Source: Alphaproteobacteria bacterium (GTDB lineage: Bacteria; Pseudomonadota; Alphaproteobacteria; SP197). From it: DNA of 64,000 nt. Where the stretch lies: NCBI GenBank assembly GCA_965228895.1, contig OZ245842.1, positions 3,168,001-3,232,000 of the forward strand, in the 5' to 3' direction. Every line of letters starts with the position of its first letter. The stretch's first letter is position 1. The notes below the pieces were generated by a model. It was not told where the DNA came from, ran no database searches, and saw only the letters and a program-made list of their open reading frames with translations. Position numbers and translations under genes: made by a program. This document shows, in pieces, positions 19,124 to 28,754 of the stretch.

Positions 19124-19804
19124 TCAGCCGGCGGCGACCGGCGTGAAGTCGCCGGTTGTCTTGTTCAGCCAGTGGAGTTCGCCTTCGGCGATCGAGAACC
19201 AGGCGCCATGCAGATCGAGGCTGCCCGCTTCGACGGCTTCGGCAACGAAAGGGAAACTCTTCAGGTGATCGAGTGATTGTTCGATTGCCAATCGCTCGAG
19301 GATGCGCAGACGTTCGGACTTCGTCAGACCGTTATCGCATGCCTGCATCGCGGCGCGCGCCGGCGCCAGAAGATCGACCCACGGACCGATGAACCGGCCC
19401 TGGGGCATGTTCTCGGCCGCCAGCGCGGCAGCCACGCCACTGCAAGAGCCGTGACCCATGACGACGATAACGTCGACACCGAGCACCGTGACGGCAAATT
19501 CAACCGCCGCGGACGTGCCGTGGAACGAGCCGGTCTCCGGGTGGTGGGTATCGCAAGGCGGCACGATGGCACCGACATTGCGCACGACAAACAGTTCACC
19601 CGGCGCGGCCGAAAAAATCGTCGCCGGATCAACCCGGCTGTCGGCGCAGCCGATGATCATGGTGCGCGGCGCTTGTCCTTCGGCGAGTTCGCGGAACAAC
19701 GCCGACTGTTCGGCGTATCGCCCCTGGCGAAAGCGTCGGTAGCCGCGAAGCAGGCGTTCGGGCACCAGTCTGGGCTGTGTTGGTGCCGTGGTGGTGACGG
19801 TCAT
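19124..19804 (-). CDS. Beta-class carbonic anhydrase
   Basis: GCADSRV, GELFVVRNVG, VMGHGSCSG. Confidence 0.95.
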   Translation of the reverse strand: MTVTTTAPTQPRLVPERLLRGYRRFRQGRYAEQSALFRELAEGQAPRTMIIGCADSRVDPATIFSAAPGELFVVRNVGAIVPPCDTHHPETGSFHGTSAAVEFAVTVLGVDVIVVMGHGSCSGVAAALAAENMPQGRFIGPWVDLLAPARAAMQACDNGLTKSERLRILERLAIEQSLDHLKSFPFVAEAVEAGSLDLHGAWFSIAEGELHWLNKTTGDFTPVAAG

Positions 19805-19841
19805 GGGACGCCCCTGTCGGAAGTCTTCGTGCTAGATCGCA

Positions 19842-20153
19842 TCAGAACCGCTCCGCGCGCAAGACCTGACAGTCGCTAACGGCGACAACGCCGATATGAC
19901 GCTCGACGACCTGGAAGATGGAATCCAGAAGGCCGTCTAGCCGATCGGGTCGGATGACACAGACAACCTGCACCATGCCGCCGGCGCGCCCGACCTGGCC
20001 TTCGCTGCTCCAATGGCCCGAGCGACCGGAACCGCCGATGACAGGCAGAATCGAATAGCCGGTCACGCCCGCCGCTTCGATCGCGTCCGTCAGCCGGCCT
20101 TTCATGGGCGCTTCGATGATGATGGCCACGCGTTTGGCTTCATGGGTTTCCAT
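19842..20153 (-). CDS. sbtB: SbtB-like P-II family protein
   Basis: GVTGYSI..GGSGRSG pattern; overlaps/abuts sbtA. Confidence 0.75.
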   Translation of the reverse strand: METHEAKRVAIIIEAPMKGRLTDAIEAAGVTGYSILPVIGGSGRSGHWSSEGQVGRAGGMVQVVCVIRPDRLDGLLDSIFQVVERHIGVVAVSDCQVLRAERF

Positions 20154-20157
20154 GGTT

Positions 20158-21141
20158 CTAGACTCCCGTAATCGCGCGCGCGACGGCAAGGTAGATGGGT
20201 AACCCGAGGATGAGATTAAACGGAAACGTAACCCCGAGCGACAACGTTAGATAGACCGCCGGATCCGCCTCCGGCACCGCGACGCGCATGGCCGCCGGCA
20301 CGGCGATATAGGAGGCCGAGGCCGACAGCACCATCAGAAGCATCACGCCGCCTGTGGAGAGGCCCAAGAGCGCCCCCGCCCCGGCACCGAACAACGCGCC
20401 GATGATGGGCATTAGACCGCCGAAGAGGAGCAATCCGGGCGTCATGAGTTTGCGGCTTTCGCGCAAACCCCGCCCGGCGATCAGGCCCATGTCGAGGAGG
20501 AACAGGCAGAGCGCGCCCTTGAACGGCGCGACCATGAAGGCCTCGATTTCGGCCAGCCCCTCTGGCCCGGTGATCATGCCGATGGCGAAGGCGCCGACCA
20601 AAAGCACGATGGAGCCGTTGAGCAAGATTTCGCGCCACAAGGCGCCATCCATGCGCGACGTGCCGCTGGAGCTCAGCAGCCAAAGCGCCGAGAGGATCGC
20701 CGGCGCCTCCATGGCGGCGGCGACGGCAACCATGAACCCCTCCGCGGCGATCCCCTGAGTTTCCAGAATCGAGCTTCCCGCCACGAACGTGACGATCGAG
20801 ATCGAGCCGTAGTGCGCGGCGACCACCGCCGCGTTGGTGCGGTCCAGCCGCGTCATCACGCGAAGCAGGCCGAAGGCGACGAAAGGCAATCCGGCCGAAA
20901 GGATGATACCGGCGGCAAGCGTCGAGCCGAGATGAAAATCGATGCCGTGTTCGGCGACGGAAACGCCGCCCTTGAACCCAATGGCAAAGAGCAGATAGAT
21001 CGAGAGTGCCTTGGCGGCGGCCTCGGGAAACGTGAGCTCGGAGCGTGCGAAGGCGGCGGCGACACCCAAAACAAATGCCAGGATCAGCGGCGATCCCAGA
21101 TTCTCCAACGCAAGCCCGAAAAACCCTTCCACCAACACCAC
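20158..21141 (-). CDS. sbtA: Sodium-dependent bicarbonate transporter SbtA family
   Basis: YLLFAIGFKGG, AHYGSISIVTF, SASYIAVPAAMR, LGVTFPFN. Confidence 0.92.
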   Translation of the reverse strand: MVLVEGFFGLALENLGSPLILAFVLGVAAAFARSELTFPEAAAKALSIYLLFAIGFKGGVSVAEHGIDFHLGSTLAAGIILSAGLPFVAFGLLRVMTRLDRTNAAVVAAHYGSISIVTFVAGSSILETQGIAAEGFMVAVAAAMEAPAILSALWLLSSSGTSRMDGALWREILLNGSIVLLVGAFAIGMITGPEGLAEIEAFMVAPFKGALCLFLLDMGLIAGRGLRESRKLMTPGLLLFGGLMPIIGALFGAGAGALLGLSTGGVMLLMVLSASASYIAVPAAMRVAVPEADPAVYLTLSLGVTFPFNLILGLPIYLAVARAITGV

Positions 21142-22765: not shown

Positions 22766-22907
22766 AGTGTTCCCCTGCAAAGTCTTTGTTGAACAAGCGT
22801 GTAGAGGACTCGACATGTCGGCCCAGAACGGGCCTGAGACAGATTGCCTGCGCCTTGTTTACGACGGCCAAATGCCGCTGTCGATCATCCCTAAGACGGT
22901 CTGCCGG

Positions 22908-22936
22908 TTGACACGGCCCGGCGACACACCTATGTG
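22908..22936 (+). promoter_or_regulatory. Sigma70-like promoter of the thr leader/thrS
   Basis: TTGACA(22908-22913)-17 nt-TATGTG(22931-22936); predicted +1 at about the leader ATG (22944). Confidence 0.7.
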
Positions 22937-22943
22937 AACGCCC

Positions 22944-23021
22944 ATGTTCGGCTGGAATGCACAAACGTGGACGACCACGACGACCCGCAAAGGCGGGCCG
23001 CTGGGTTGTCGCGCGCGCTGA
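22944..23021 (+). CDS. Thr-rich leader peptide (25 aa) of the thrS attenuator
   Basis: MFGWNAQTWTTTTTRKGGPLGCRAR*; six Thr codons, five consecutive, upstream of thrS. Confidence 0.85.
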   Translation: MFGWNAQTWTTTTTRKGGPLGCRAR

Positions 23022-23051
23022 ACGCCGCTTAGATAAAACACACACCCATTG

Positions 23052-23080
23052 GCCCCGCCGGCGACGGACGGGGCTTTTTT
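23052..23080 (+). terminator. Attenuator terminator upstream of thrS
   Basis: GCCCCGCCG-GCGA-CGGACGGGGC then TTTTTT; 5' arm can alternatively pair with 22992-23006. Confidence 0.85.
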
Positions 23081-23124
23081 GTGTCCGGCCTCCGTCCACG
23101 CCCACGATGCAACGGAGACAAGAC

Positions 23125-24300
23125 ATGGACGAGAACGATCATAGAGCCATCGCCAACCGGATGGACCTGTTCCACCAGCAGGAGGAAGGTCCCGGTATGG
23201 TGTTCTGGCATCCCCGAGGATTCGCGCTCTACCGGATCATCGAGGACCACATCCGCGGCCACATGAAGCGCTCAGGCTTTCGCGAAATCCGCACGCCACA
23301 GCTTTTGGCGCGCGAGCTGTGGGAAAAAAGCGGTCACTGGGAAAAGTTCGCCGGCAACATGTTCGTCATCGACGACGACGAACACGCCCATGCGCTGAAA
23401 CCCATGAGCTGTCCGGCGCACGTGCAGGTCTTCAACAAGCGGGTGCGCTCGTTCCGCGACCTGCCGCTTCGTCTCGCCGAGTTCGGCGCCTGTCACCGCA
23501 ACGAACCGTCCGGTGCGCTTCATGGCCTGATGCGCACACGCGCGTTCGTGCAGGACGACGCGCATATCTTCTGCGCGCCCGATGATGTCGAATACGAGGT
23601 CGCGCGGTTCTGCCGCATGCTGTTCCAGATCTATGACGCGTTCGGCTTCGATGATGTCGCCGTCGCGTTTTCGACACGACCAGACAAGCGCGCGGGATCA
23701 GACGAAGCCTGGGACTGCGCCGAAGCCGCCCTGGAGGCTGCCGCCAAGGCGGCCGAACTCGACTATCGAGTCGACCCGGGCGAAGGCGCGTTTTATGGAC
23801 CCAAGCTGGACTTCCATCTGCGCGACAGTCACGGGCGCGACTGGCAGTGCGGCACCGTGCAGCTTGACCTGGTGCTGCCCGAACGCCTGGACGCCAGCTA
23901 CATCGACAGCGACGGCCAGCGCGCGCGTCCGGTGATGATCCACCACGCGGTGCTGGGCAGCATCGAGCGTTTTATCGGCATGCTGCTGGAACACCATAGC
24001 GGCGATCTGCCCCTGTGGCTGGCGCCCGAGCAGGTTATTGTCGCGAACATCACCGACGCCTCGGCGCCTTATGCGCACGAGGTCGCATCGAAGCTGGAAG
24101 CCGACGGCTTGCGCGTTGCACTCGATGTGCGATCGGATCGCATCGCCAAGAAGATCATCGATGCGCGCAGCGCGGGCATCCCGGTCCTGGCCGCCGTTGG
24201 TGAGCGCGAAGCACGCGACGGCACGGTCTCGCTTCGCCAGCGCGACGGCAGTCAAGACGTTGTGGCTCTCAACGACGCGGCCTGTGTCTTGGCTCCCTGA
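23125..24300 (+). CDS. thrS: Threonine--tRNA ligase, short form lacking TGS and editing domains (probably auxiliary)
   Basis: Starts at MDENDHR after SD GGAGA; KPMSCPAH, HRNEPSGALHGLMR, YGPKLD, QCGTVQLD, GSIERF; 391 aa. Confidence 0.92.
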   Translation: MDENDHRAIANRMDLFHQQEEGPGMVFWHPRGFALYRIIEDHIRGHMKRSGFREIRTPQLLARELWEKSGHWEKFAGNMFVIDDDEHAHALKPMSCPAHVQVFNKRVRSFRDLPLRLAEFGACHRNEPSGALHGLMRTRAFVQDDAHIFCAPDDVEYEVARFCRMLFQIYDAFGFDDVAVAFSTRPDKRAGSDEAWDCAEAALEAAAKAAELDYRVDPGEGAFYGPKLDFHLRDSHGRDWQCGTVQLDLVLPERLDASYIDSDGQRARPVMIHHAVLGSIERFIGMLLEHHSGDLPLWLAPEQVIVANITDASAPYAHEVASKLEADGLRVALDVRSDRIAKKIIDARSAGIPVLAAVGEREARDGTVSLRQRDGSQDVVALNDAACVLAP

Positions 24301-24374
24301 GCGCGCCCGGTACGGCCCGGCATTGCGTGAACTTTGTGGTCGCGTAGAGTGCAGGATTCGATGGGGGAGCCTTC

Positions 24375-25913
24375 ATGGAAGATCGCTACGCCAAGAAATG
24401 GCGCGCGCTGGTCGGCATCAGCCTGCTTTCGTTTATCGTTTTCATGGATTACGGCATCGTCAACACGATTCTGCCGGGCATCCAGGCCGACCTCCTGGCG
24501 AGCGTCAGGCAATTGCAATGGGTCATGAACGTCTTCTTTATGACGCTTGCCATGTTCATGGTGACGATGGGGCGTCTGGGCGACATCTATGGCCGCCGGC
24601 GCGTGCTCTATATCGGCGTTGTCGTCTTCGGCGTCGCCTCGGCGGTGTGCGGCGCGTCGCCTGACCCCGCCATTCTGATCGCCGCGCGTGCGGTGCAGGG
24701 CACGGCGGCCGCAATCGGGCTGACCTGTGCGGCATCGCTGGTCACCCATGCCTTTCCGGAGGACGAGAAAGGCCGCGCGCTCGGTTTCTTCATGAGCATC
24801 ACCGCCGTCGGCATGGCGATCGGCCCGGTGATCGGCGGTTTCTTCCTGTCGTTTCTGTCGTGGCGCTGGGCGTTTTACGTCAACATTCCCGTCATCATCG
24901 TCGGCTTCATGATCTGCCGTGGCGCGGTGCCGGAAACGCCGCGCCTGCTGAGCGAAAAGGTCGACTGGCTGGGCCTGTTGTTCCTGGTGCCGGGCATCGG
25001 CGTCATGGTGCTGGCGATCATGCAGGGCAATAGCTGGGGCTGGGGCTCCGACGTCATGATCGCGCTCTATATCGTGACCGCCCTCTGCCTGGTCGCGTTT
25101 ATCGTTGTCGAGAAGCGCGTGGCCTCGCCCATCGTAGACCTTAAACTTTTTCGCCACCCAATGTTCCAAAGCGCGGTCTTCGCCGGCTTCGGCCTGGGCG
25201 GCTTTATCGGCATCGGCACGTTTCTGCCGGCGCTTTTCCTGATCAACATCCAGGGAATGCCGGCCTATGTCGCCGGCATGATGCTGCTGCCGATCACCGT
25301 GCTTGTCATGATCATCCCGCCGGCGATCGGCAAACTGGTCGACGCCAGGGGCCCGGCCGGTTTCATGATCCTGGGTCAGGCGATCCTGGTGATCGCCGCA
25401 GTTGTCCAGGTCTTCTTCGTCCCGGCGTCGCCGGCCTGGTTCGTGCTGCTGGGGCTTGCGCTGTTCGGCCTGGGCTGGGGTTTCCAGCAGGCCTCGACGG
25501 CGGTCGCTGCTACCAGCGCACTGCCGCCCGAAGCGGCCGGGCTTGCCATCGGCTCGCTGTGGACGTTCTGGAACATCGCCTCGTCGATCACGCTCGCGGT
25601 CGGTGGCATGATCCTGCGCGTCGTCGATCAGTCGCGCCTGGACGCGTCGCTGGCGGCGAACAACATCTCGCTCAGCAACCAGCAGCAGCATGTCATCCGC
25701 AGCCTTTTGTCGGACCCCAGTCGCGCAGAACAGACGCTGGGCGAACTGCCGGCCAAACTGTCGACGGAAATCACGCCCCTGTTCCACGACAGTTTCACAG
25801 AAGGCTACAACGGCGCCATGCTGTTCATGGCGATCTGGTGCGCGGTATGTCTGATCGGCACGATCCTGACCGCCATGCGCGGGCGCAAGGCCACTGCAGC
25901 AACGCCAGACTGA
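24375..25913 (+). CDS. MFS transporter, DHA2 (14-TM drug:H+ antiporter) type
   Basis: GRLGDIYGRRR motif A, GPVIGG motif C, WRWAFYVNIP, DWLG, PIVDLKLF. Confidence 0.9.
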   Translation: MEDRYAKKWRALVGISLLSFIVFMDYGIVNTILPGIQADLLASVRQLQWVMNVFFMTLAMFMVTMGRLGDIYGRRRVLYIGVVVFGVASAVCGASPDPAILIAARAVQGTAAAIGLTCAASLVTHAFPEDEKGRALGFFMSITAVGMAIGPVIGGFFLSFLSWRWAFYVNIPVIIVGFMICRGAVPETPRLLSEKVDWLGLLFLVPGIGVMVLAIMQGNSWGWGSDVMIALYIVTALCLVAFIVVEKRVASPIVDLKLFRHPMFQSAVFAGFGLGGFIGIGTFLPALFLINIQGMPAYVAGMMLLPITVLVMIIPPAIGKLVDARGPAGFMILGQAILVIAAVVQVFFVPASPAWFVLLGLALFGLGWGFQQASTAVAATSALPPEAAGLAIGSLWTFWNIASSITLAVGGMILRVVDQSRLDASLAANNISLSNQQQHVIRSLLSDPSRAEQTLGELPAKLSTEITPLFHDSFTEGYNGAMLFMAIWCAVCLIGTILTAMRGRKATAATPD

Positions 25914-25998
25914 CTGTCGTCACCACATCGTTGTTCACTAAAGCGCGGCAATGGCAGACTTCGGATCATTTGGAACGGTGTATGAAAGGTAAATCTTC

Positions 25999-26949
25999 AT
26001 GAGATATGTTGTACGGGCCATCGCGGCCGCTCTCGTCGTTTGGGTGGGCGTCGGTTTCGCGCCGACGACCATGGCGCAGGACCATCCGCCGGCGGTGATC
26101 TTTGAAGGCTTGATGGACAACTTCTTCGGCCAGGACAACGGTCTCGTGGTCTTCGGCACTTATGACATCGCCTTTGCGCCGGAGGGCCAAATCGATGCCA
26201 TCGTCGGCGTCGTCAATTCCGACGGCGAGGTAATGGCGCAGTTCCCGTTTTTCCCGGATTACAAAATTCACGAGGGGGTGTTCGGACGCATCCAAGTTGT
26301 TGGACCGGCCGACGTTCAATTGACCGAACCTGGTATCTACACGATGGTCTTTGTCGTGGACGGCGAACCGATCACACGGTTTCCGTTTCTGCTGGAACAG
26401 ACCGGTGACGGTTCGGATCCTTTCGATCCCGAAAAAACCTACGCCTTCGACGGATACTGGCGCACGCTCGCTCACATCACGACCGGCAGTGTGAACGATC
26501 AACCAATTCCGATATTTTCGATTTGGCTCGGCGGCGTCGATATGCCGACGCCGGATACCTTCCAGGAGTACTTCGCGGCCGAACTCATGCGCGATGGCGT
26601 GCTCATTGCCCATGCCCAAAAGCAAACGAGCTCCTACAGCAATGGTCAATTCAGGCGCCAAGAGGTCATCATCTACCAGCCCCATGAGGAAAATCAGGCG
26701 CACAACGCCATTGCGTTCACCATGGCCGACATGTCTGTTGACGGTTCCTATGAGCTGAACATCAGTCGACAATCCGACGGCGGCCTGTTGCGCAGTTACC
26801 GCTTTACGGTTTCCGGCGGTGAGATCGTACCTTTGCCCCGGACACAACTGGGCTTCGAACCGGCATCCGACTACATCGTGCCGCGAGTCACGCGTAAAGG
26901 ATCGACCATCTACGAGTTCGAAGAAGTAATCTGGATCGCCAGTGAATAG
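25999..26949 (+). CDS. Secreted hypothetical protein (beta-rich)
   Basis: 316-aa ORF, signal peptide ending TMA-Q, SD upstream. Confidence 0.7.
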   Translation: MRYVVRAIAAALVVWVGVGFAPTTMAQDHPPAVIFEGLMDNFFGQDNGLVVFGTYDIAFAPEGQIDAIVGVVNSDGEVMAQFPFFPDYKIHEGVFGRIQVVGPADVQLTEPGIYTMVFVVDGEPITRFPFLLEQTGDGSDPFDPEKTYAFDGYWRTLAHITTGSVNDQPIPIFSIWLGGVDMPTPDTFQEYFAAELMRDGVLIAHAQKQTSSYSNGQFRRQEVIIYQPHEENQAHNAIAFTMADMSVDGSYELNISRQSDGGLLRSYRFTVSGGEIVPLPRTQLGFEPASDYIVPRVTRKGSTIYEFEEVIWIASE

Positions 26950-26972
26950 CATGGTGCGATCAAGAGCATGAG

Positions 26973-27001
26973 TTGACCACGCGCCCGCAACGGCATAGAT
27001 A
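26973..27001 (+). promoter_or_regulatory. Sigma70-like promoter of the met leader/metG
   Basis: TTGACC(26973-26978)-17 nt-TAGATA(26996-27001); predicted +1 at about the leader ATG (27007). Confidence 0.65.
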
Positions 27002-27006
27002 GAGGC

Positions 27007-27087
27007 ATGGTCAATCTGACGAACCTTTCGGCCGCGATGATGAAACCGCACATGATGCATGGGGCGGCTTCCTTCGTTATGTCCTGA
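27007..27087 (+). CDS. Met-rich leader peptide (26 aa) of the metG attenuator
   Basis: MVNLTNLSAAMMKPHMMHGAASFVMS*; five internal Met codons including two MM doublets. Confidence 0.8.
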   Translation: MVNLTNLSAAMMKPHMMHGAASFVMS

Positions 27088-27116
27088 CGACACCAAGAAT
27101 TACCTGACCACGAAAC

Positions 27117-27148
27117 AAGCCGCCTCCTTCGCGAGGCGGTTTTTCTTT
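27117..27148 (+). terminator. Attenuator terminator upstream of metG
   Basis: AAGCCGCCTC-CTTCGC-GAGGCGGTTT then TTCTTT; 5' arm complementary to GGGGCGGCTT at 27061-27070. Confidence 0.85.
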
Positions 27149-27188
27149 GTCGAATGCCGTCTTGCGTCTTGGCGCAGCGGAGAACGAC

Positions 27189-28754
27189 ATGAACTACCAT
27201 TCCGACACGACCCGAAGACCGTCCTGGTACATCACGACGGCGATCCCTTACGTCAATGCCGCGCCCCATATCGGCTTTGCGCTGGAGCTGGTGCAGGCCG
27301 ACTGCCTGGCGCGCTTTCATCAGGCCGCCGGCTATGACGTGCGCTTCCAGACAGGTAGCGACGAAAACAGCCTGAAGAATGTTGTCGCCGCCGAGAAGGC
27401 CGGCGTCACGGCACGCCAGCTTGTCGCCGAGAACGCGCAGCTCTTCGTGCGCCTGGGCAACGCGCTGAACACACGCGCCGACGGTTTCATCCGCACCAGC
27501 GCCGATGCGCGCCATCGCCTTGGCGTCGAAAAGCTGTGGCGCGCCGCTGACGCGCGCGGCGACATCTACAAAAAGGCCTATAGCGGCCTCTATTGCGTGG
27601 GCTGCGAACAATTCTATCGGCCCGACGACCTCGAACACGGCAGGTGTCCGGAACACGGCACCGAACCGGAGGAGGTCGAGGAAGAGAACTACTTCTTCCG
27701 ACTATCGCGCTACCGCCATGCGCTGCTTGAACGCATCACCTCTGGCGAGCTTTCGATCGAACCGGCGGGCCGCAGGAACGAAGTGCTGCGATGGCTCGAG
27801 GAAGGGCTGGATGACTTTTCGATCTCGCGGTCAAGCGAACGTGCCCATGGCTGGGGCTTGGCCGTGCCGGGCGATCCCGATCAGGTCATCTACGTCTGGT
27901 TCGATGCGCTGGGCAACTATGTCACCGCGCTCGATTACGATATCGAAGGCGGCCTTTATCAACGTTACTGGACCGGCGCCGCACAGCGCAGCCATGTTGT
28001 CGGCAAAGGCATCACTCGGTTTCACGCGATCTATTGGCCGGCCATGCTGCTGTCGGCCGGTCTGCCCTTGCCCGATCGTATTCTGGTGCACGGCTATGTC
28101 ACTGTCGAAGGCGACAAGATCGGCAAGTCGACGGGCAACGCCGTCGACCCGCTTCCGGTCATCGCCGCTTACGGCGCGGACGCGCTGCGCTACTACCTGC
28201 TGCGCCATATCCGAACCGCCGAAGACGGCGACTTCAGCCACGAGCGGCTGGCGCAAACCTATCAAACCGAGCTCGCCGGGCAATACGGCAACCTCGCCAA
28301 CCGCGTGTTGAGTTTGATCGAACGCTATGCGGATGGCGTTGTGCCCGCACGCGCCGAGAACGCCGAACCGACTGCGCTCGCCAAAGCAGTGGCGGACCTG
28401 CCGAACGCCGTTGCGGCGCATGTCGACCGGTTCTCGCTGCACGAAGCCGTGGCCGCGATCTGGGACGTCATCGGCGAGGCCAACCGCCATGTCGCCGCGA
28501 CCGAACCGTGGTCGCTGGCCAAACAGGTCGCGGCCCTCGACGACAGCACGGAGGCAAGCGCGGCGCGGCGGGCTCTCAATACCTGCTTGCACGACCTCGC
28601 CACAGCACTTGATGCCGTGGCACGTGCCTGCTGGCCGTTTCTGCCCGAGACGTCGGAAAAACTGCTGGCGCAGCTCGGCCTGACATCGGCCGTTGACCGT
28701 CGACCTCTCACGGGGCGGCGTGTGCGCTCAGGGTCGGTGTTGTTTCCGCGTTGA
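27189..28754 (+). CDS. metG: Methionine--tRNA ligase, single-knuckle short form with variant motifs (probably auxiliary)
   Basis: YITTAIPYVN.PHIGF, GSDEN, CVGC...CPEH knuckle, YVWFDAL, GKGITRFHAIYWPA, KIGKS. Confidence 0.92.
   Translation: MNYHSDTTRRPSWYITTAIPYVNAAPHIGFALELVQADCLARFHQAAGYDVRFQTGSDENSLKNVVAAEKAGVTARQLVAENAQLFVRLGNALNTRADGFIRTSADARHRLGVEKLWRAADARGDIYKKAYSGLYCVGCEQFYRPDDLEHGRCPEHGTEPEEVEEENYFFRLSRYRHALLERITSGELSIEPAGRRNEVLRWLEEGLDDFSISRSSERAHGWGLAVPGDPDQVIYVWFDALGNYVTALDYDIEGGLYQRYWTGAAQRSHVVGKGITRFHAIYWPAMLLSAGLPLPDRILVHGYVTVEGDKIGKSTGNAVDPLPVIAAYGADALRYYLLRHIRTAEDGDFSHERLAQTYQTELAGQYGNLANRVLSLIERYADGVVPARAENAEPTALAKAVADLPNAVAAHVDRFSLHEAVAAIWDVIGEANRHVAATEPWSLAKQVAALDDSTEASAARRALNTCLHDLATALDAVARACWPFLPETSEKLLAQLGLTSAVDRRPLTGRRVRSGSVLFPR

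Follow-up and report, generated by a model that had tools for sequence, protein, structure and literature searches.

Two supernumerary aminoacyl-tRNA synthetase genes, each preceded by a leader with the anatomy of a leader-peptide attenuator, were found in a 64,000-nucleotide (nt) window of an alphaproteobacterial genome (contig OZ245842.1, positions 3,168,001 to 3,232,000 of the forward strand). Coordinates given below are positions within this window, and all leader and synthetase features lie on its + strand. Between 22,900 and 28,760, the order on this strand is a threonine (Thr) leader with its terminator, the threonyl-tRNA synthetase (ThrRS) gene thrS2, a DHA2-type major facilitator superfamily (MFS) transporter gene, an open reading frame (ORF) of 316 codons, a methionine (Met) leader with its terminator, and the methionyl-tRNA synthetase (MetRS) gene metG2. 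Classical ribosome-mediated attenuation driving back-up synthetases is the probable explanation of this arrangement, and the two auxiliary-synthetase and attenuator units are, as part of the same explanation, probably independent modules that have become neighbours by chance in this genus. Both attenuators would govern supernumerary synthetases, for which service as back-ups restoring tRNA charging is the simplest role. An earlier note, made from the letters of the window, had proposed attenuator-controlled back-up synthetases, and this proposal is supported by the second-copy status of both genes, by the conservation of their leaders and by the alternative folds of the latter.

The Thr module consists of the following features:

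22908..22936, + strand: putative sigma-70-type promoter, with -35 TTGACA (22908-13), a 17-nt spacer and -10 TATGTG (22931-36)
22944..23021, + strand: Thr leader upstream ORF (uORF), 25 codons and a stop, MFGWNAQTWTTTTTRKGGPLGCRAR
22970..23010, + strand: hairpin 1:2 of the minimum free energy (MFE) fold, in which Thr codons with CCCGC pair with GCGGGCCGCUGGGUUGUC
23051..23080, + strand: intrinsic terminator, stem GGCCCCGCCGG / CGGACGGGGC (23051-74) and T6 (23075-80)
23088..23117, + strand: hairpin sequestering the Shine-Dalgarno (SD) sequence, in which GCCUCCGUCC pairs with the thrS2 SD ACGGAG (23112-17)
23125..24300, + strand: thrS2, 391 residues, with SD ACGGAG at 23112-17

Thr codons of the uORF are located at 22965-67 and 22971-85, which amounts to six Thr within seven codons. 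The uORF begins (ATG 22944) 7 nt past the -10 hexamer and has no SD before its ATG; at that distance, the transcript would be leaderless or nearly so. TTGAC was present at equal distance from the uORF in most of ten aligned Thr-leader loci, the MAFFT register being shifted in some of them. Neither this promoter nor that of the Met leader was called by a consensus promoter scanner, because the -10 hexamer rule of the scanner fails. Hairpin 1:2 is predicted to act as an anti-antiterminator that would be melted by a ribosome stalled on the Thr codons. The alternative structure, antiterminator 2:3, is provided by GGCGGGCCG..UGGGU (22992-23006), which is complementary to ACCCA plus the 5' arm of the terminator (ACCCA..GGCCCCGCC).

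Comparative analysis of ten Thr leaders showed that this architecture is conserved. The structure made of hairpin 1:2 and terminator was paired in 87.7% of the alignment cells versus 32-56% in slid controls, with 82% for the 16 pairs of hairpin 1:2 and 97% for the terminator hairpin (-19.5 kcal/mol in the window), which was nearly invariant. Six of the 26 pairs of the structure changed on both sides, all of them within hairpin 1:2, and the covariation score of the whole structure was equalled by one of 500 shuffles. The antiterminator was paired in 77% of cells versus 30-55% in slid controls. When the transcript was cut after the 5' arm of the terminator and a 30-nt ribosome footprint was placed over the Thr codons, the antiterminator formed in 5/5 genomes, at -31 to -40 kcal/mol, the terminators being at -19.5 to -23.6 kcal/mol. 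Outside the genus, a short thrS was detected in 7 of 400 other genomes of the class, and in all seven the gene was directly preceded by a uORF and the same terminator (GGCCCCGCCGG-loop-CGGACGGGGC). In five of these genomes, the uORF had at least four Thr codons. The peptides are MLMMLQALNTTTTTRSGGPWGFDVR, MSQVRATTTTTTTTRLGGPCGAGMR, MNRLLQSQRTTTRTTRLGGPAGIVMR and MSQMRKHQQVTTTWTADRRPRGVGLC, each followed by a stop and the last one occurring in two genomes, and two less typical ones of mixed Ile/Val/Thr composition (MQSIILTVVTIKVTATGGEPWCHA and MQNVILTVVTIKVAAAGGGRGRCAC, likewise followed by stops). The cognate-rich leaders that the earlier note expected upstream of short-thrS homologues thus exist in most cases.

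In full-leader MFE folds, the SD of thrS2 was paired with an upstream CUCC-type segment in 10/10 sequences, and SD and anti-SD varied in concert in three lineages (genomes G239, G100 and G142). This conserved hairpin suggests an extra layer of translational control over thrS2. Equivalents of the SD hairpin were observed at loci L045, L046 and L048-L054. A relay, in which the freed 3' arm of the terminator would pair with the anti-SD and release the thrS2 SD in read-through transcripts, was considered and was not supported: the 3' arm paired downstream in 7/10 sequences, yet the SD stayed paired in most of them, that of the window included.

ThrRS2 contains only the class II catalytic core and the anticodon-binding domain (PF00587 and PF03129). 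It scored 471 bits against TIGR00418 (cut-off 384), over model positions 164-548 only; the TGS and editing (second additional) domains are missing, and its first residue corresponds to E. coli residue 239. The start taken here, ATG 23125 with the SD at 23112-17, replaces that of the 447-residue frame from 22957 which had been annotated in the earlier note. ThrRS2 aligned gaplessly to residues 242-614 of E. coli ThrRS (1qf6), with the zinc ligands Cys334, His385 and His511 (E. coli numbering) kept, as were Tyr462-Gly463 (query 224-225) and Leu489; the Gly463-to-Ser resistance substitution is not present. A full-length thrS was found elsewhere in the 5.53-Mb genome (652-residue frame, 662 bits), as the earlier note had asked to be checked, so that thrS2 is a second copy; the two products are 56% identical. 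Neither the housekeeping thrS nor the housekeeping metG had a Thr- or Met-rich uORF in the 330 nt before it.

The best 120 database hits to ThrRS2 were all 371-422 residues long, with 66-100% identity, and their source names include Kiloniellales, Ferrovibrio, Falsiroseomonas and Minwuiales. The seven genomes mentioned above were retrieved at E <= 1e-165 and 63-70% identity, and among 60 nearer relatives the short gene occurred only in two genomes of the same genus. In a FastTree phylogeny of 77 rows, 22 short ThrRS formed one side of a branch with a Shimodaira-Hasegawa-like (SH-like) support of 100, the other side being composed of 28 full-length sequences of the class and 27 metagenome sequences; the tree is unrooted and carries SH-like support only. 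Judged by these sequences, the short ThrRS (about 395 residues, without TGS and editing domains) are one clade and a natural family of its own. A full-length thrS accompanied the short one in 10/10 genomes, although that of G001 is split over contigs. Among the matches listed in a metagenome scan with ThrRS2, 80/80 loci encoded ordinary ThrRS, at no more than 58% identity.

The Met module is built on a similar plan:

26973..27001, + strand: putative promoter, with -35 TTGACC (26973-78), a 17-nt spacer and -10 TAGATA (26996-27001)
27007..27087, + strand: Met leader uORF, 26 codons and a stop, MVNLTNLSAAMMKPHMMHGAASFVMS, with five internal Met
27061..27070, + strand: Met antiterminator strand GGGGCGGCUU, complementary to AAGCCGCCUC and to GGCCGC (27031-36, region 1)
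27117..27151, + strand: intrinsic terminator, AAGCCGCCUC-CUUCGC-GAGGCGGUUU (27117-27142), then UUCUUUG
27189..28754, + strand: metG2, 521 residues, ATG 27189

The ATG of the Met uORF (27007) lies 5 nt past the -10 hexamer, and a TTGnnn-N17-(-10)-N5-9-ATG layout was visible before proteobacterial Met leaders. The succession of TTGAC, 17 nt, -10 hexamer, ATG, cognate-rich leader, antiterminator and terminator that the earlier note had read in both modules is indeed present in each of them, as seen in the sequence and in in silico folds. Met codons of the window uORF occupy positions 11-12 (27037-42), 16-17 (27052-57) and 25 (27079-81). The terminator was called by the terminator scanner (10 pairs; -16.1 kcal/mol). 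In the MFE fold of the free leader, the antiterminator strand is already paired with the 5' arm of the terminator, and masking of Met codons 11-12 yielded in silico an antiterminator with 10/10 arm bases paired. Masked-ribosome folds gave an antiterminator in 9/10 proteobacterial Met leaders, in which the Met codons are immediately followed by a GGCGG-type segment that pairs with the terminator 5' arm to form this structure. RNAalifold applied to ten Met leaders returned five uninformative pairs, the MAFFT alignment being structurally poor.

Distribution of Met leaders was analysed at 80 metG2-type loci, returned by a scan of species-representative genomes. With a criterion of at least two Met per 5-residue window, a Met-rich uORF was found before 37 of 51 loci with an HxGF-type MetRS and before 9 of 27 with a HIGH-type MetRS, versus 3 of 152 stretches taken as controls. 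Of the other two loci, one was excluded for its short upstream region, and one, of HxGI type, was kept separate. The prediction that homologues of metG2 would carry cognate-rich leaders is borne out to this extent. Such leaders ('MMMPRS', 'MMPRSRGR') precede MetRS genes in Proteobacteria, Myxococcota, Actinomycetota and Chloroflexota. Proteobacterial uORFs include MDNTVISTFVMMMPRS (Rhizobium), MDRLFANATMMMLRS (Agrobacterium), MFDRLPISAVAMMMPLSIPEAGPPGM (Reyranellaceae) and MTIYRTFPFADMMMPRFYIGAGSFCAN, all followed by a stop; actinomycete types end in VMMPRSRGR or MMPRRRGC before the stop, and a uORF of Ktedonobacterales begins with MMMEMAMRTPRG. For Actinomycetota and Chloroflexota the evidence consists of the uORFs and of the presence of two MetRS, whereas folds and terminators come from proteobacterial leaders. 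Actinomycetota uORFs end near-identically in MMPR(S/R)RG(R/C) and a stop, and their 'MMPRS' core is common to the MMMPRS end of Rhizobium (L076, L085-L089, L100, L105, L107, L113-L116, L119 and others). Reading by eye, the CCGCGCU that follows the Met codons in Rhizobium is the complement of AGCGUGGC; because of this complementarity, the Pro-Arg-Ser codons may be constrained at the RNA level.

MetRS2 scored 317 bits against PF09334 and 417 bits against TIGR00398 (cut-off 336). Scores of both synthetases are thus above the NCBIfam equivalog cut-offs and, with the zinc ligands of ThrRS2 kept, both enzymes look intact. MetRS2 deviates from both canonical signatures, with PHIGFA replacing HIGH and KIGKS replacing KMSKS; Phe stands for the second His of HIGH in 20/20 aligned members of the family. 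The earlier note had singled out these variant motifs, which are real (HxGF, KIGKS) but are traits of a clade: HxGF was present at 51 of the 80 metG2-type loci, and in a 0.9-Mb Patescibacteria genome the HxGF-type enzyme is the only MetRS, making the variant motifs compatible with a housekeeping function. MetRS2 also has a CxxC..CPxH zinc knuckle, which the product of the genome's own metG does not have. That gene, of the ordinary alphaproteobacterial kind (524 bits), was found elsewhere in the genome as the earlier note would have it, making metG2 a second copy; its product is 41% identical to MetRS2. Of 400 other genomes of the class, a single one possessed a close homologue of metG2, and database relatives with 55-88% identity bear names including Methylocapsa, Bosea, Chelativorans, Methylocystis and Rhizobium. 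In a FastTree phylogeny of 84 rows, MetRS of Pseudomonadota and Myxococcota, that of the window included, formed a group of 19 with a support of 97; Chloroflexota and Actinomycetota clades stood beside this group, Patescibacteria and archaeal sequences branched at a greater distance, and a long outgroup branch led to the genome's own metG. By this topology, MetRS2 is an enzyme of Chloroflexota/Actinomycetota type, foreign to its host and probably horizontally acquired. The leader-bearing MetRS was the second MetRS in 9/9 proteobacterial and myxococcal genomes tested, as well as in 5/5 genomes of actinomycetes and Chloroflexota.

A scan of the whole genome (5.5 Mb, both strands) with fixed criteria (a uORF, a hairpin, a T-tract and a downstream ORF) yielded 104 sites, among them many false positives for Trp and Cys that lay within coding regions. 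Six Thr in a 7-codon window occurred at the thrS2 leader alone, and four Met at the metG2 leader alone. A covariance model built from the Thr leaders was then searched in 150 genomes of the class. It recovered the three known thrS2 leaders at 100-117 bits and returned 11 further hits at 34-69 bits, which came from G142 and eight other genomes. Where inspected, matches scoring less than about 31 bits were ordinary terminators at gene ends. Inspection and Pfam scans revealed a common chassis before other genes, made of a uORF ending in ..GG(P)..R and a stop, a GGCGGG strand and the terminator GGCCCCGCCGG/CGGACGGGGCC. Before asd (L232, L237, L250, L251), its uORFs are rich in Thr, Lys and Met (MRRSTDKRTTTSTKTPAGVVEACAR, MYMLTIKRMTKKTPAGGAVESCAR and MIRIATTTMTTKKATRFGGLPRGMS, each with a stop); before dapA-like genes (L233, L234, L236, L238), they are Lys-rich, for example MRRLMNVAAKAKAPPPGTEDPRLR and a stop. 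The chassis also occurs in G094 before two GNAT genes, an ABC ATPase gene and a gene of unassigned family (L229/L249, L239, L240, L242), and none of these four uORFs showed enrichment in a single residue. No Rfam 15 family matched the Thr, Met or chassis leaders. A T-box or riboswitch was also considered and discarded, with no Rfam match at gathering score in the window and none at E up to 10 in 22800-27300.

Two other leader-like sites came to light in the window's own genome. At about 818,410-818,600 (G000:C1, + strand, L223), a uORF ending in MTKTTTKTPVVRR and a stop and a terminator GGGGCCGGAAGGCCCC-T6 stand directly before asd (NF011456, 485 bits), and this leader is a candidate Thr/Lys attenuator of the aspartate pathway. 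At about 3,405,170-3,405,335 (G000:C1, + strand, L224), a Tyr/Phe/Trp-rich uORF, MTSTSRHTAYFWYFGYPTPPAPAEDRSA and a stop, and a terminator precede a gene for an AroG-type DAHP synthase (TIGR00034, 525 bits); its ATG lies 9 nt after a -10-like TATCTA, which is likewise a near-leaderless layout.

Under the proposed mechanism, each module would be transcribed from its own promoter, the transcript starting probably at or just before the AUG of the leader uORF. With charged Thr-tRNA(Thr) or Met-tRNA(Met) plentiful, the translating ribosome would pass the Thr or Met codons and reach the stop codon, hairpin 1:2 and the GC-rich terminator would form, and transcription would end before the synthetase gene. 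If charging fell, either because the amino acid was in short supply or because the housekeeping enzyme was lost or inhibited, the ribosome would stall on the Thr run or the Met pair and cover region 1, leaving region 2 to pair with the 5' arm of the terminator as an antiterminator. RNA polymerase would then read into thrS2, and probably into the MFS gene and ORF316 as well, or into metG2. The products would be working synthetases topping up charging, ThrRS2 being a catalytic-core enzyme without cis-editing.

Several observations do not fit this mechanism easily. Work on truncated E. coli ThrRS leads one to expect that an editing-less enzyme mischarges serine, an odd property for a back-up used under Thr scarcity. 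The Thr antiterminator, although conserved, showed no covariation, with 0 pairs changed on both sides, and masking switched the full-length equilibrium fold in only 4/7 Thr leaders (the window, G142, G067 and G416, but not G239, G100 and G301). The Ile/Val/Thr-mixed leaders of G416 and G301 have four and two Thr codons, respectively, and terminators without a clear U-tract. In the window Met leader, modelled stalling at Met 16-17 or 25 gave no antiterminator, only that at 11-12 did, and leaders of the sister genomes, MLNHVVTASLKTMPRMFHGAA(T/S)FVMS and a stop, have just three scattered internal Met codons. Finally, 14 of the 51 HxGF loci, Patescibacteria included, had no Met-rich uORF by the criterion used.

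Two further genes separate the modules:

24375..25913, + strand: DHA2-type MFS transporter gene, 512 residues, with its own SD GGGGGAG
25999..26949, + strand: ORF316, 316 residues, with a signal-peptide-like N-terminus and no confident family

The 74-nt gap between the stop of thrS2 (24300) and the ATG of the MFS gene (24375) contains no terminator-like site according to the terminator scanner, in agreement with the earlier note on both spacing and terminator, and the MFS gene is probably co-transcribed with thrS2. Its product clearly matched PF07690 (178 bits) and aligned over its full length to TIGR00711 (EmrB subfamily) with 203.5 bits, below the cut-off of 230.2. ORF316 had been overlooked previously. 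Its family matches were sub-threshold only (DUF6941, 23 bits, below cut-off, and CsgH-like), its G+C content at third codon positions is lower (0.69), and it is an insertion specific to the window's genome, since the sister genomes G001 and G002 have 90-160 bp between the MFS gene and the Met leader. In G001, a perfect inverted repeat was observed after the MFS stop, inside the stretch corresponding to the ORF316 site.

The order thrS2-MFS-metG2 was syntenic in these two sister genomes of the same genus. Beyond the genus, equal lengths of the matched contigs suggest that a 19,875-bp contig carries homologues of both thrS2 (77%) and metG2 (72%), and that a 9,463-bp contig carries homologues of both thrS2 (80%) and the MFS gene (79%). 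By contrast, the 80 metG2-type loci, viewed with as much as 6 kb of sequence on either side, contained neither a short thrS nor the same MFS gene, and six short-thrS neighbourhoods outside the genus contained neither an MFS gene nor a metG2. Genes found downstream of short thrS in six other genomes encode a SIMPL/DUF541 protein, an aminoglycoside N-acetyltransferase-like protein, a Kef-type exchanger, an alginate-export-like protein, a DUF1275 protein and an amidohydrolase. As the grouping was seen only in the genus and close relatives, it is not a conserved cassette, contrary to the two-synthetase and pump cassette of the earlier note, whose linkage was observed in the genus and, by inference, in two near relatives.

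A broader reading of these data, which we consider possible but hold with rather less than even confidence, joins three propositions: that the Met-codon attenuator before a second MetRS and the modular alphaproteobacterial chassis are two unrecognised and widespread families of RNA regulators, and that the auxiliary synthetases are a charging-triggered defence against inhibitors. The Met-codon attenuator would then be the first dedicated ribosomal sensor of Met-tRNA charging, and exchange of uORF codons on the chassis, whose antiterminator strand GGCGGG and whose terminator would be fixed, may place thrS2, asd, dapA-like, GNAT and ABC genes under different translational signals.

Taken for the window itself, the possibility of an inducible defence against natural synthetase inhibitors keeps the same regulation and assigns another purpose to it: ThrRS2 and MetRS2 would be insensitive enzymes, the attenuators would sense the collapse of charging and the DHA2 pump would expel the compound. 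Divergent second synthetases commonly give resistance to natural inhibitors, according to passages of PMC5388404 and PMC9437257. Both enzymes have diverged widely from their housekeeping counterparts (identities of 56% and 41%), metG2 belongs to a foreign type, the distribution is patchy (7/400 genomes of the class for short thrS and 1/400 for metG2), and a drug-type MFS gene follows thrS2 without intervening terminator in three genomes of the genus and, by inference, on one more contig. However, ThrRS2 keeps Gly463 and Leu489, which are marks of obafluorin and borrelidin sensitivity, no biosynthetic or other resistance genes were found within about 4 kb upstream and 3.4 kb downstream, and the pump is unlinked to short thrS in 6/6 genomes outside the genus and to 80/80 metG2-type loci. 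The module against antibiotics or toxins imagined in the earlier note has no direct support, and we regard this explanation as unlikely.

It is much less probable still that the paralogues serve a job other than bulk charging, such as regulated mistranslation, charging of a special tRNA or supply of aminoacyl-tRNA to a secondary pathway, with the leader tying this job to the cognate supply. Synthetase paralogues with non-translational roles are known (passages of PMC9437257), the whole editing domain is missing from ThrRS2, and the Phe replacing the second His of HIGH is invariant in the 20 aligned members of the MetRS2 family. Against this, catalytic and zinc residues as well as anticodon-binding domains are intact, an HxGF enzyme is the sole MetRS of a Patescibacteria genome, neighbouring genes are not conserved, and the window contains no tRNA gene. 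That the uORFs are not sensors at all, their hairpins being ordinary terminators or protein or small-RNA sites and their Thr or Met richness a by-product of RNA constraint, is scarcely credible: the RNA clearly determines the C-terminal half of each leader peptide (GGCGGG giving 'GG') and the same terminator chassis does precede genes with unenriched uORFs, such as the four copies of G094, but the codon runs lie in the variable 5' half and track the gene (Thr for thrS2, Thr/Lys/Met for asd, Lys for dapA-like genes, Met for MetRS), the enrichment persists while peptide sequences differ among genera, and Met-rich uORFs were far from evenly spread between HxGF loci (37/51) and controls (3/152).

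Attenuation of back-up synthetases, the reading preferred here, can be compared with several known systems. In Bacillus subtilis, thrS is accompanied by thrZ, a silent second ThrRS gene induced via a T-box when Thr-tRNA charging falls. The window's genome would similarly possess a housekeeping ThrRS and a spare one switched on by low charging; unlike thrZ, the window module has a predicted translated leader as sensor, with no T-box hit, and its spare enzyme has no N-terminal domains. The leaders also resemble the pheST, thr and trp attenuators of E. coli in their cognate-rich uORF, in their 1:2 hairpin and in an antiterminator exclusive of the terminator, and pheST, as cited in a passage of PMC1262725, is likewise a synthetase gene under leader-peptide attenuation. 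They differ from them in that the controlled genes are extra divergent paralogues, in that translation of the uORFs would begin right at the transcript 5' end without SD, in having no Rfam leader match and, for one of them, in being built on Met codons, for which no precedent was found in the literature searched.

In Streptomyces lividans, leaderless leader peptides precede alaS, thrS, trpS and leuS (passages of Droste 2021, PMC8079986), and attenuators have been described before trpS and leuS in Streptomyces (passages of Seliverstov 2005, PMC1262725). Common to these cases and to the window are uORFs, leaderless in the former and predicted to be so or nearly so in the latter, followed by hairpins before synthetase genes, including a thrS, and Streptomyces trpS2 is an auxiliary copy. 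The S. lividans thrS leader, as described there, has two Thr codons and no clear terminator, unlike that of the window, which controls an editing-less ThrRS in Alphaproteobacteria. No Met leader before a MetRS gene was noted in the main-text passages of PMC1262725 and PMC8079986.

As to the enzymes, ObaO, the ThrRS of obafluorin self-immunity (bioRxiv 10.1101/704981; PMC11252418), is also a second ThrRS beside a housekeeping copy. It is full length (construct 241-637 of a 637-residue-scale protein), lies within the oba cluster and has Ser at the Gly463 position; this Gly463-to-Ser change is the cause of its resistance to obafluorin and protects against borrelidin as well (passages of PMC11252418). 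ThrRS2 differs from such self-resistance synthetases of ObaO/MupM type in being truncated, in having Gly at 463 and in having no adjoining inhibitor cluster. It matches residue for residue, over 242-614, a truncated E. coli ThrRS construct (242-642) used in crystallography and assays, which hydrolyses ATP with threonine (passages of PMC11252418), except that ThrRS2 belongs to a natural gene family with its own clade. In Anabaena, ThrRS is duplicated (T1/T2), and T2 is stress-induced, keeps charging going and responds to zinc limitation (Rubio 2015, PMC4787780; passage of PMC9437257); nothing in the window module points to zinc control.

Leader-peptide attenuation of synthetase genes is textbook biology. 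Three elements were not described in the literature searched, outside which most subscription journals lie: a natural ThrRS family that has no editing domain, follows a Thr leader and would serve Alphaproteobacteria as a spare expressed on condition; a Met-codon leader, here spread over four phyla, before a second MetRS which is of foreign type in Proteobacteria; and a re-usable attenuator chassis shared by asd, dapA and thrS2, whose regulatory codons change with the controlled gene. If the proposed regulation is true, the leaders would provide simple reporters of Thr- and Met-tRNA charging, the short ThrRS a handle on how cells tolerate an unedited enzyme, and many unannotated second synthetases would be flagged as candidates for inhibitor resistance. 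Were charging-triggered defence against inhibitors also true, the leaders would be ready-made biosensors for such compounds. As regards genome annotation, both uORFs and both RNA motifs are missing from Rfam 15.

Genes flanking the two modules encode an SbtA-like transporter, a beta-carbonic anhydrase, a Sel1-repeat protein, a YjbR protein and an MBL-fold protein, together with small ORFs without assigned family. The SbtA-like Na+-dependent bicarbonate transporter gene (PF05982, 365 bits) adjoins the beta-carbonic anhydrase gene (PF00484) at 19124-21141 on the - strand, and the two are likely to constitute a pair for inorganic-carbon uptake.

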